DNA of 8,242 nucleotides from positions 1-8,242 of the forward strand of contig JAEOSI010000089.1 of assembly GCA_016840425.1 (NCBI GenBank), in the 5' to 3' direction. Position numbers and translations under genes: made by a program. This DNA comes from Candidatus Wukongarchaeum yapensis. GTDB lineage: Archaea > Asgardarchaeota > Wukongarchaeia > Wukongarchaeales > Wukongarchaeaceae. Of this stretch, positions 857-6,210 are shown piece after piece. How positions within the stretch are numbered: position 1 is the first letter of the stretch; every line of letters begins with the position of its first letter. Under the pieces are notes generated by a model. That model had not been told where the DNA came from, ran no database searches, and was given only the letters and a program-made list of their open reading frames with translations.

Positions 857-2971
857 GTGGACATACTGGGCGTGGATATATTAGCAGGCTCTTCTGTTTT
901 TTCAAGACCAAGATATGCCGCGGTTCTTCTGCAAGAAGGTGAGATAATTGACCGTTATCCCGATCTCAGTAAGCGGAGACTTTTAAGACTGATAAGAGAG
1001 TTGTCCCCCTCTTATGTGGCTTCAGACAACATTTTTGAACTGGTTGATGATAGAAGGAAGCTTAGGGCCTTATGCGCTGCTTTTCCGCTCAAAACGAAGC
1101 TGGTACAAGTTACTGGAAGTCCCTATCACGGGTTTAAACCCCTAAGAGAGATCAGTAAGCTTTACAACATCCCCTTCTCAGGGAAACCTAATCCGATGCA
1201 AACAGCAGAAATTGTAGCAAGGCTCGTAGATTTAGGAATAGGTTTCATAGTAGCGCCTTTCACAGATGAAACAAAAATAATCGTATCAAAGAGTCGCCAT
1301 CTAGGCCCTGGAGGTTGGTCTGAAAAACGTTATGCCCGAAAAATTCGGGGCGCAATACAAAAAATGGCAAGAGAAATAACTGAAAAACTTGAAGAAAAGT
1401 CCCTAGATTTTGATTATTATGAAAAACGTTCAGAATTCGGTCTTGATAAAGCGGTTTTTCATGTCTATGCCCCGAAAAAAGAGATTGATTCCTTTATTAA
1501 AAGAATGCGGACAAGCTTAATACAGGTCAAAGTTGAACCAGTGCCAAGTAAAACTACAACTTACCGCCCTATTAATGAAGAAATATTAACGGATTTAGAC
1601 CTTTTTCCTTGGCCTGTTGGAGGAGAAGAAGAAAGGAGGCTTTTACCCTTAATAGTGGGGATAGATGCAGGCACTACGACCGCCATTGCCATAATGGACT
1701 TTTCAGGCAATCTCCTTCACTTGTCAAGTAGTCGTGAATGTTCGAGAAGCGAGATAATAAAACTAATAATAAGGTATGGAAAACCTGCAATAATCGCGTC
1801 AGATGTTCCCCATACCCCCTCATTGTTAGCGAAGTTAGCTGCAACCTTTCAAGTAAAAGTACATAATCCTAAAGAGGATATCGCCGTCAGTGCAAAAACC
1901 GAACTAGTAAACAGTTTTCTCGAGGAAAATATCTTCATAAACGATAAACCAAGTAATGCCCATGAACGTGATGCCTTAACAGCAGCAATCCTTGTCTTTA
2001 AAAACTATAAAAACCTCTTTCAAAAAATAGATTCAAAAATAGAATTACAAAAACTTGGTATAAATCCTGAAGCTGTAAAAGTTTTAGTCATACAAGGAAT
2101 GAAAATCAGTGATGCTATAATGCGAATAGCAAACGAAAAAGCAAAGGAAAAAGAACTCTTAGAAACTATAAGATCAAAAGAAGTTCCACAAGAAAGAGAA
2201 ATCCAAAATGGAGAAAAAATAGACGAAGATACTGACCAGCGCTTAGTTAACCGGTTAAAACGGCGTTTGGACGCCTCAAGAAAACAATATGACTTCCTTG
2301 AACAGCAAAATGAAGAACTTAAACATAAATTAGAAGCAAATCAAAACCGCATATCTGAACTTGAAAAACAGTTGGAATATCTCCGATCAGAAAAAGCTAA
2401 AGATTTAACCATTAAAAGATTGCATATCCAACATCAATTTGAAGTAAAAAGGCTTGAAGAAGGCAAAAAGAATCTCTTTAAAGAGACAGAACTATTAAAA
2501 GATGAAATAAATAGGTTAAAAGAAGCAATATTATTAGCTTCAGATCCCGAATTAGTACCAATAAAAGTTATCCCTGACTTTTCCCTTGAAACAATCGAAA
2601 AAGCTATCACCGAGCTGAAAATCGCGGAAAAAGACATAGTTTTGATAAAAAGTCTTTCAGGGGCAGGTAGTTCCACAGCAAAAATCCTCGCAGAAACTGG
2701 CATAAAAACGATCATAGTCCCAAAATCATCCTCCATCCCTCAAAACGCCCTCTCAATATTAAAAGAAAAAAACACCATCTTACTTGAAGAAGAAAAATTA
2801 GAAATCCTGTTTAAAGAACCTTTTGCTTTCATGAGAAAAAACCTCTTTGAAGAGGCCGTAAAGCAAGCAGAACAAAAACTAGAAGAAGAACAAGAAGGAC
2901 TTCTTAAAGAACGTTTAGGAAAAATGGTAAGCGAATACAGGTTTCTACGCCGAAAAGAACTCACAGAATGA
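857..2971 (+). CDS. DUF460 / COG2433 family protein (two RNase H-like folds plus long coiled coil; predicted RuvC/YqgF-like nuclease)
   Basis: N-terminal ILGVDILAG strand, central IVGIDAGTTTAIA, ASDV and NAHERDALTAA motifs, heptad-rich region around aa 475-575 of the listed ORF. Frame is open from TTG 818; GTG 857 preferred because homologues typically start just before the ILGVDI motif. Confidence 0.85.
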   Translation: MDILGVDILAGSSVFSRPRYAAVLLQEGEIIDRYPDLSKRRLLRLIRELSPSYVASDNIFELVDDRRKLRALCAAFPLKTKLVQVTGSPYHGFKPLREISKLYNIPFSGKPNPMQTAEIVARLVDLGIGFIVAPFTDETKIIVSKSRHLGPGGWSEKRYARKIRGAIQKMAREITEKLEEKSLDFDYYEKRSEFGLDKAVFHVYAPKKEIDSFIKRMRTSLIQVKVEPVPSKTTTYRPINEEILTDLDLFPWPVGGEEERRLLPLIVGIDAGTTTAIAIMDFSGNLLHLSSSRECSRSEIIKLIIRYGKPAIIASDVPHTPSLLAKLAATFQVKVHNPKEDIAVSAKTELVNSFLEENIFINDKPSNAHERDALTAAILVFKNYKNLFQKIDSKIELQKLGINPEAVKVLVIQGMKISDAIMRIANEKAKEKELLETIRSKEVPQEREIQNGEKIDEDTDQRLVNRLKRRLDASRKQYDFLEQQNEELKHKLEANQNRISELEKQLEYLRSEKAKDLTIKRLHIQHQFEVKRLEEGKKNLFKETELLKDEINRLKEAILLASDPELVPIKVIPDFSLETIEKAITELKIAEKDIVLIKSLSGAGSSTAKILAETGIKTIIVPKSSSIPQNALSILKEKNTILLEEEKLEILFKEPFAFMRKNLFEEAVKQAEQKLEEEQEGLLKERLGKMVSEYRFLRRKELTE

Positions 2972-2982
2972 TCTCAATCCCT

Positions 2983-2987
2983 TTTAA
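2983..2987 (+). other. Left cleavage site / transposon-adjacent motif TTTAA of mini-element copy 1
   Basis: Identity between the two repeat copies begins at TTTTAA (2982 / 5983); TTAA is the cleavage site predicted from the AAGT guide tetranucleotide at the foot of the left hairpin. Confidence 0.7.
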
Positions 2988-3050
2988 CTTCTTCGGCGAG
3001 AAGTCCCCTCGCGAAAGCTGGGGGATGAAAGCCGAACAATAATAATAAAC

Positions 3051-3058
3051 TATTTATA
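3051..3058 (+). promoter_or_regulatory. Archaeal TATA-like box inside mini-element copy 1
   Basis: TATTTATA after an A-rich tract, about 26-30 nt upstream of the first scaffold hairpin (3087); conserved in copy 2. Confidence 0.5.
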
Positions 3059-3083
3059 GTCATAAGAATAACAAGATAGAAGA

Positions 3084-3131
3084 GTAGGACAGGGACTGTC
3101 CGAATTTACGCCTGTGAAGATGGATGAATAA
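3084..3131 (+). pseudogene. tnpB: tnpB C-terminal relic (VGQGLSEFTPVKMDE*)
   Basis: Translation resembles the G-Q-G-x-x-E-x-T-P-V-E tail common at the end of IS605/IS1341 TnpB proteins; upstream in-frame TAA at 3069, no RuvC or zinc-finger coding sequence left. Confidence 0.7.
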
Positions 3132-3206
3132 TGATGATCCCGTCGTTGAAACAGGAAGCTCCCTGCAAAAGCTGGGAGTAGTTCACATTAGTAGTCCGCG
3201 TCTCCA
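3084..3206 (+). ncRNA. Predicted TnpB omega-RNA (reRNA): ~103-nt scaffold plus flank-derived guide ATTAGTAGTCCGCGTCTCCA
   Basis: Hairpin GGACAG/CTGTCC (3087-3101), stem CCTGT/ACAGG (3111-3115/3151-3155) with inner GGAT/ATCC, right-end hairpin, and TGAA(3147-3150)/TTCA(3182-3185) pairing as in the terminal pseudoknot of TnpB reRNAs. The 5' end and guide length are inferred. Confidence 0.7.
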
Positions 3207-5983: not shown

Positions 5984-5988
5984 TTTAA
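5984..5988 (+). other. Left cleavage site / transposon-adjacent motif TTTAA of mini-element copy 2
   Basis: Same TTTAA immediately before CTTCTTCGGCGAG as in copy 1; sequence further upstream is unrelated. Confidence 0.7.
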
Positions 5989-6190
5989 CTTCTTCGGCGA
6001 GAAGTCCCCTTGTGAAAACTGGGGGATGAAAGCCGAACAATAATAATAATCAACTATTTATAATCATAAGAATAACAATATAGAAGATTAGGACAGGGAC
6101 TGTCCGAATTTACGCCTGCGGAGATGGATGAATAATGATGATCCCGTCGTTGAAACAGGAAGCTCCCTGCAAAAGCTGGAAGTAGTTCAC
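5989..6190 (+). mobile_element. Non-autonomous IS200/IS605-family mini-element (PATE/MITE-like), copy 2, 202 bp
   Basis: Aligns to 2988-3186 with 9 substitutions and a 3-nt insertion (6050-6052); identity stops sharply after GTAGTTCAC (6190). Confidence 0.9.
6055..6062 (+). promoter_or_regulatory. Archaeal TATA-like box inside mini-element copy 2
   Basis: TATTTATA(A), same position relative to the scaffold as in copy 1. Confidence 0.5.
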
Positions 6191-6210
6191 AAACCATAAC
6201 TTTTCTAAAA
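6088..6210 (+). ncRNA. Predicted TnpB omega-RNA, copy 2: scaffold plus flank-derived guide AAACCATAACTTTTCTAAAA
   Basis: Same helices as copy 1 (GGACAG/CTGTCC 6091-6105, CCTG/CAGG, TGAA/TTCA); overlaps relic frame LGQGLSEFTPAEMDE* (6088-6135). Confidence 0.65.

Follow-up and report, generated by a model that had tools for sequence, protein, structure and literature searches.

How could a transposable element of about 200 nt that encodes no protein obtain a guide RNA? This question is raised by an 8,242-nt stretch of DNA (the window), which lies on contig C77 of a genome assembly of 2.16 Mb (38% G+C, 277 contigs, 92% complete) and carries two copies, A and B, of such a mini-element, each with a TATA-box-like octamer upstream of a predicted omega-RNA scaffold. 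The genes of the window are archaeal (Sm, RIO kinase, DUF460 and ThiC), and the host population is an Asgard archaeon sampled from marine sediment and mangrove. A first-pass annotation had proposed that the box is placed to start transcription at the scaffold, so that each copy would form a guide-RNA cassette of its own, and had offered as an alternative that the box is the parental left-end promoter fused by deletion.

The mini-elements, their ends and their relatives

Direct reading of the window confirmed the octamer, the hairpin and the guide flanks of both copies as the first-pass annotation had given them. The hairpin GGACAG-GGA-CTGTCC occupies 3087–3101 in copy A and 6091–6105 in copy B, and TTCAC closes the two elements at 3186 and 6190, respectively. 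The octamer TATTTATA occurs at only two sites in the window when both strands are scanned, with approximately 0.56 expected by chance. As 20 of 200 shuffled windows contained at least two matches, the octamer alone is not significant, and its weight lies in its recurrence at the same place within a repeated element, not in the motif itself. Alignment of the two copies revealed 94% identity over approximately 200 nt. Neither copy contains an ORF on the element strand, both are too short for a transposase gene, and copy A is touched by a single ORF, a 52-aa frame on the minus strand that leaves the element.

Comparison of the window with contigs of three DNA metagenomes that other studies had produced (runs X2, X6 and X8) revealed the empty sites of both copies. 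Both joints, 2987 to 3187 and 5988 to 6191, are found on one contig of X6; X8 contains the copy B joint, 5988 to 6191, together with a variant of the copy A joint; and X2 contains the empty site of copy A with the exact joint 2987 to 3187. Because these contigs join the outer flanks, the boundaries of the elements are fixed at 2988–3186 (199 nt) and 5989–6190 (202 nt). Both elements lie directly 3′ of TTTAA, with no target-site duplication and no inverted terminal repeats; in the genome as a whole, nearly every copy follows TTTAA, and one follows TTTTA. Both copies are thus absent from related populations, and this insertion polymorphism demonstrates recent mobility, the insertion style being that of the IS200/IS605 family. 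The coordinates of the features are collected in Table 1.

Table 1. Features of the two mini-elements in the 8,242-nt window.
Feature	Positions	Strand	Basis
TTTAA target/TAM of copy A	2983–2987	+	Kept beside the guide in the empty-site joint 2987 to 3187
PATE copy A, protein-less IS200/IS605 derivative, 199 nt	2988–3186	+	Empty-site contigs; other copies 94–97% identical
Left-end subterminal imperfect palindrome (putative TnpA recognition hairpin)	2992–3035	+	DNA fold
AAT-rich linker, 12–21 nt among copies	3036–3050	+	Copy comparison
TATA-box-like octamer TATTTATA, inherited left-end promoter (putative activity)	3051–3058	+	Homologous boxes on full-length left ends; direct reading
26-nt spacer, predicted start at about 3078–3086	3059–3084	+	Archaeal TATA-to-start distance
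Omega-RNA scaffold of copy A, through the right-end hairpin to TTCAC	3085–3186	+	Alignment A2, consensus fold
Right-end hairpin of copy A	3158–3179	+	Consensus fold
Guide-equivalent flank of copy A, beginning ATTAGTAGTCCGCGTC	3187–3202	+	Directly after TTTAA in the empty site
TTTAA target/TAM of copy B	5984–5988	+	Joint 5988 to 6191, runs X6 and X8
PATE copy B, 202 nt	5989–6190	+	Alignment to copy A, empty site
Octamer TATTTATA of copy B	6055–6062	+	Direct reading
Omega-RNA scaffold of copy B; right-end hairpin weakened by G-to-A	6089–6190	+	Alignment, fold
Guide-equivalent flank of copy B, beginning AAACCATAACTTTTCT	6191–6206	+	Empty site

In total, the genome contains about 12 mini-element copies, and tnpB is matched about 30 times (the TnpB zinc-ribbon domain 31 times). 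The element of about 200 nt is present in eight copies with 86–97% identity, one of which (C253) bears a nested insertion, and an additional site (L109) is known from a metagenome contig only. Three more diverged copies form two subfamilies (C201, and C175 with C268), and longer variants are also present. The right 100 nt or so of the mini-element match the 3′ end of TnpB genes of about 398 aa (C137, C59, C205 and others), in which three TnpB Pfam domains are present; both full-length copies checked, C137 and C59, have retained the RuvC D-E-D residues and the zinc ribbon. The last 46 nt of the mini-element are identical to the full-length copy on C205. The left-end and right-end hairpins are common to the mini-elements and to the tnpB elements on C137, C143, C97 and C205, and the same left-end type is found on full-length tnpB elements of this genome and of other Asgard genomes. 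Copies A and B are thus PATE-type (palindrome-associated transposable element) elements, i.e., protein-less, non-autonomous IS200/IS605 derivatives of a tnpB-only (IS1341-type) element. The assembly, which is 92% complete in 277 contigs, contains no cognate tnpA for these ends; its one intact tnpA, on C70, has a different left end.

Several further forms were observed in the same genome. Two terminal-only elements of about 52 nt (L026:1491–1541 on C104 and L027:796–847 on C160) consist of a left-end half joined to a right-end half via a common GCGAAAGCTGGG, with neither TATA box nor scaffold. The C253 copy (L007:1501–1979) carries an insertion of about 280 nt with inverted terminal repeats inside its left-end palindrome, and ends related to this insertion remain in two other copies, C175 and C121. 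Two PATEs of 275–281 nt, on C154 (L012:1500–1780) and C144 (L021:1502–1775), combine the same left end and scaffold with a TATA-like box; about 110 extra nt separate box and scaffold, with compensatory stem changes between the two copies, and the extra stretch has no other copy in the genome. Within the window itself, positions 515–800 belong to another repeat family of at least nine copies with 80–86% identity, the T-rich stretch 450–515 recurs upstream of several tnpB copies (C19, C34, C110 and C189), and metagenome depth is elevated across 276–825.

Beyond this genome, searches at the class and phylum levels, the latter with two candidates scored per genome, found no complete PATE of this architecture outside the genus. 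A metagenome scan for the left end plus scaffold with any spacer returned four contigs and no independent lineage, as all four belong to the same population, three being loci of this genome and one a new site.

Position and ancestry of the TATA-like box

In archaea, transcription begins about 22–27 nt past the TATA box, whose centre lies about 26–27 nt before the start. The octamer is separated from TAGG, the first bases of the scaffold (3085 in copy A), by 26 nt in each of the seven PATE copies measured in this genome, which represent three subfamilies, and by 24 nt in a copy of the sister species (G001, a Hodarchaeota genome of the same genus). The box is therefore positioned to start transcription near the scaffold, as the first-pass annotation had proposed. 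That annotation had also suggested comparing the TATA-to-scaffold spacing among copies, taking a motif and spacing that are not conserved as fatal to the idea; within this lineage the spacing holds among family members.

The same constancy bears on a rival reading, possible but rather doubtful, in which the TATA box is a relic. The PATE would then persist by TnpA transposition alone, its RNA would arise from read-through or not at all, and box and scaffold would be carried along, with the deletion end points happening to fall there. Against a relic speak the constant length of the spacer next to a hairpin-to-box linker that ranges from 12 to 21 nt among copies, and the sister-species copy, whose octamer is identical despite a spacer of only 54–68% identity. 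Box and scaffold are also the least variable parts of the element: in the main family, variable columns make up a fraction of 0.12 in the box and 0.11 in the scaffold, compared with 0.31 in the spacer, 0.45 in the left end and 0.54 in the linker, figures that are only suggestive because one recombinant-looking copy inflates the count. On the other side, the main-family copies are young (94–97% identity), which makes conservation within that family weak evidence, and the fusion is probably of single origin. The conserved spacing is probably a matter of inheritance, since all PATE subfamilies of the genus probably descend from one fusion. The octamer TATTTATA is identical in five of the seven measured copies, the sister-species copy among them; the mutated box of the C147 copy, with TATTTGTA in its place, would suit a relic, as would an independent left-end-to-scaffold fusion (L117) without a clean TATA box. 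The 52-nt scaffold-less elements speak for a relic too, and comparable forms in Haloquadratum may be mobile (PMC3119063); nevertheless, the scaffold-bearing form numbers about 12 copies versus two for the 52-nt form, and the deletion end point coincides with the conserved 5′ boundary of the scaffold.

The ancestry of the box was traced on related left ends. Full-length left ends of this genome contain TTTATAA shortly after the hairpin and 24–29 nt before the first ATG, and a full-length element of G001 has the same arrangement; judged from sequence, this placement corresponds to leaderless or short-leader archaeal promoter geometry. In five other Asgard genomes, from other families, the same left end bears TTTATATA or TTTTTATAA 4–8 nt after the hairpin regardless of cargo, and the box is thus an ancestral part of the left end. 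The alternative offered by the first-pass annotation, a parental left-end promoter fused by deletion, is borne out by these homologous boxes. Its main idea gives the geometry and its alternative gives the origin, and both describe one fact.

Some features argue against an active promoter held at a fixed distance. The two rare subfamilies on C154 and C144, with about 110 nt more between box and scaffold, count against a fixed-spacing promoter, and the main reading set out in the next section is also weakened by the match to a BRE, which is only approximate (A-rich ATAAAC upstream of the octamer), and by the different left end of the only intact tnpA. A promoter consensus of the genome itself offered no standard of comparison: upstream of 804 long ORFs, TATA-like words form no sharp peak and only a Shine-Dalgarno peak appears, and the tRNA genes detected (four without and 18 with intron search, most with introns) are too few for a consensus.

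Two related elements from other genomes and one rejected candidate may be mentioned here. In the sister genome G001, a full-length element (L069:592–830) with the same left-end type has a TATA-like box, then a small ORF (about 45 aa) and then a second-family tnpB starting MQLTQK. The fusion L117 (G046, another Asgard family; about 1370–1545, minus strand) forms a PATE some 170 nt long, in which the left end is related and the scaffold is a variant one; its T-rich spacer contains no canonical TATA box. The microhomology AGAAGAG, found in a parental 5′ leader and again ahead of the parental scaffold, was considered as the deletion junction and rejected: it is not common to the older subfamilies, the A-rich linker of bacterial elements looks similar, and the junction lies within 3059–3084.

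Scaffold, guides and proposed function

A 22-base core of the scaffold was found on three contigs of the sister genome G001, in one Micrarchaeota genome and in many Lachnospiraceae genomes. Alignment of 46 distinct archaeal and bacterial scaffold sequences (alignment A2) revealed that the conserved block starts exactly at TAGG, i.e., at 3085 in copy A and 6089 in copy B. Upstream of TAGG the groups have nothing in common: the sequence is coding in the archaeal parents, an A-rich linker after the tnpB stop in bacteria, and left-end sequence in the PATEs. The consensus fold contains compensatory changes in 10 of 26 pairs, including three of the six pairs of hairpin 1 and many in the right-end hairpin; its other parts are an invariant closing helix (GAAUU/AGUUC), a CCUG/CAGG helix and a stem 2 of very variable length. 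Folded as a single sequence, copy A adopts the consensus structure (z = -3.0). Stem 2 measures about 26 nt in the PATE, 44 nt in the archaeal parents and 17 nt in bacteria, so that the PATE falls inside the natural range, and no conserved part of the scaffold is absent from it. An Rfam scan of the whole window at E-values up to 1 returned one chance lncRNA match only and none to HgcC (RF00062); by this model, the window elements are therefore not HgcC members.

In Lachnospiraceae, the scaffold core of contigs L087, L090, L095, L102 and L103 agrees almost base for base with that of the archaeal elements. Protein-less fusions were also seen there. Some 60 nt upstream of the matched pattern, these have a left-end hairpin, then GATTATATA and, immediately after it, TAGGGCAGGG; by its sequence, this fusion looks like an independent event at the same scaffold boundary.

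As TTTAA stands directly before the right flank in the empty sites, each guide is the flank of its insertion. The guide of copy A has no other match with up to two mismatches in the genome, and neither window guide has a second TAM-adjacent target there, so that the first-pass observation of no second match to either guide in the window extends to the whole genome for TAM-adjacent targets. The copy B guide has one TAM-adjacent near match, on C54, which is off by one base and looks like chance. Among all right ends in the genome, only that of the C177 copy has real secondary targets; these are paralogous tnpB genes and are explained by the insertion of that copy in a tnpB gene with paralogues. 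The C177 PATE (L004:1501–1705) sits inside a tnpB gene of another family, and the paralogous genes on C61 (near 1015) and C212 (near 1831) contain TTTAA plus the 16-nt sequence without interruption, with two TAM-proximal differences from the C177 guide. In principle, the guide of a mini-element could thus aim at other tnpB genes, to judge from these matches.

These guides are pertinent to the further suggestion of the first-pass annotation that dispersed guides might load nuclease-dead TnpB derivatives for regulation. The copies are indeed many and their guides differ, and nuclease-dead TnpB repressors with their own guide RNAs are described in bacteria (10.64898/2026.09.22.753285). A TldR-like repertoire repressing guide-matched genes is, however, extremely improbable here: each guide is simply an insertion flank, the window guides have no second TAM-adjacent target, and the real secondary targets are confined to the paralogous tnpB genes of the C177 copy. 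Since both parent-family TnpB copies that were checked keep the D-E-D residues, nothing points to a use of dead TnpB, and this suggestion found no support.

It is also very unlikely that the box serves as an outward mobile promoter changing the expression of neighbours, with the scaffold as a transcribed leader. Outward promoters borne by insertion sequences are common, and copy B lies 298 nt upstream of thiC (6489) on the same strand. Yet archaeal transcription would be expected to stop at the T7 run that lies some 60 nt beyond copy B, and copy A has no gene downstream, as it points into the 3′ end of the convergent Sm gene. Populations with empty sites exist as well, and insertion sites elsewhere have no common gene context.

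The reading preferred here, which is on balance probable, is that the PATE uses its own left-end promoter to make a guide RNA as a primary transcript, which is loaded by TnpB in trans and directs cutting of the vacated site. In this mechanism, an internal deletion removed tnpB from a parental IS1341-type element and joined the left end, with its TnpA hairpin and BRE/TATA promoter, to the last 100 nt or so of the element, which comprise the complete minimal omega-RNA scaffold and the right-end hairpin. The first conserved base of the scaffold now stands approximately where the parental start codon stood relative to the TATA box, and a transcript start is predicted on this ground at 3078–3086 (6082–6090 in copy B), 1–9 nt before hairpin 1. 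If the guide measures 16 nt, the primary transcript would be about 120 nt long, in agreement with the estimate of the first-pass annotation; it would run through the scaffold into the flank, which would supply the guide. TnpB from full-length sister elements would be supplied in trans and load this RNA, and after excision the loaded TnpB would cut the vacated TTTAA-plus-guide site, whose repair would restore the mini-element by homing or retention. We infer TnpB loading and cleavage of the vacated site from published TnpB biology (PMC10055086, PMC10691335); the promoter activity and the start site are likewise putative.

Transcript data came from the one RNA run containing part of the window, X20, a metatranscriptome represented by assembled contigs that carry no strand or end information. 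One contig of 201 nt runs the full length of a C201-type copy, with its left end, and its depth does not exceed that of the adjacent genes; carry-over of DNA or read-through may account for it, and it gives no start site.

A stronger version of the preferred reading is quite possible, although short of probable, namely that the mini-element is a selected, self-transcribing guide-RNA gene in which the box is held at a fixed distance, the polymerase initiates on the scaffold's first base, and the TnpB of relatives is parasitised. If so, a mature 5′ end would be obtained with neither tnpB mRNA nor TnpB processing, and, as in the case of C177, paralogous tnpB genes could even become targets of the element.

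Relation to known PATEs and TnpB systems

PATEs of the IS200/IS605 family were defined in Haloquadratum walsbyi (PMC3119063). The copies described here resemble them in being protein-less, in having subterminal palindromes that resemble those of tnpB elements, in strain-specific insertion, in the absence of inverted terminal repeats and target duplication, and in their derivation by internal deletion of IS1341-type elements. The 52-nt terminal-only forms mirror the 52-bp core-deleted PATEs of Haloquadratum, and the nested insertion of C253 resembles the SMR-A elements that target PATE palindromes there (PMC3119063). In contrast to those PATEs, the present copies come from another archaeal phylum (Asgard, Hodarchaeota) and are unrelated in sequence; the Haloquadratum account predates guide RNAs and names neither promoter nor scaffold (PMC3119063).

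More recent accounts describe PATEs as frequent carriers of omega-RNAs that depend on TnpB supplied in trans (PMC10055086), and stand-alone omega-RNAs as acting in trans (PMC10691335, citing Altae-Tran 2021). Like the elements treated there, the mini-elements are mobilised, carry neither effector nor transposase, and retain the scaffold with the flank as guide, and the genome likewise holds compatible TnpB copies (PMC10055086, PMC10691335). The corresponding parts of both accounts do not address the transcription route of such RNAs, for which the present elements offer a left-end TATA box at a fixed 26 nt; conversely, function in trans is demonstrated for the systems treated there and would here be expected by analogy (PMC10055086, PMC10691335).

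The closest archaeal comparison is provided by Halobacterium salinarum, in which sotRNAs derive from the 3′ end of IS1341-type tnpB (HgcC family, RF00062) and the expressed VNG_R0052 is a PATE-derived RNA of fused left and right ends (PMC4615843). The RNA predicted here would belong to the same archaeal type, from the 3′ end of an IS1341-type tnpB. Upstream of the tnpB-linked RNAs of Halobacterium, a classical BRE-TATA was not found and processing from tnpB mRNA is favoured (PMC4615843, PMC12558985), which by analogy argues against the promoter reading preferred for the present elements.

PATEs, an expressed PATE-derived RNA, PATE omega-RNAs needing TnpB in trans and stand-alone omega-RNAs have thus been published, and the known picture of TnpB biology is unchanged by this element family. 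New are the fixed promoter-to-scaffold geometry with a box ancestral to the left end, and the precise 5′ boundary of a cross-domain scaffold, with its core common to Asgard archaea, Micrarchaeota and gut Firmicutes, together with the empty sites, which document recent transposon activity in Hodarchaeota populations. The mini-element also provides a scaffold that has been shortened in nature, to about 100 nt, and whose ends are known exactly. To the question of how an RNA could be supplied without tnpB mRNA, it offers a concrete candidate answer in the form of a left-end promoter that stands, through fusion, at a fixed distance ahead of the first base conserved in the scaffold.
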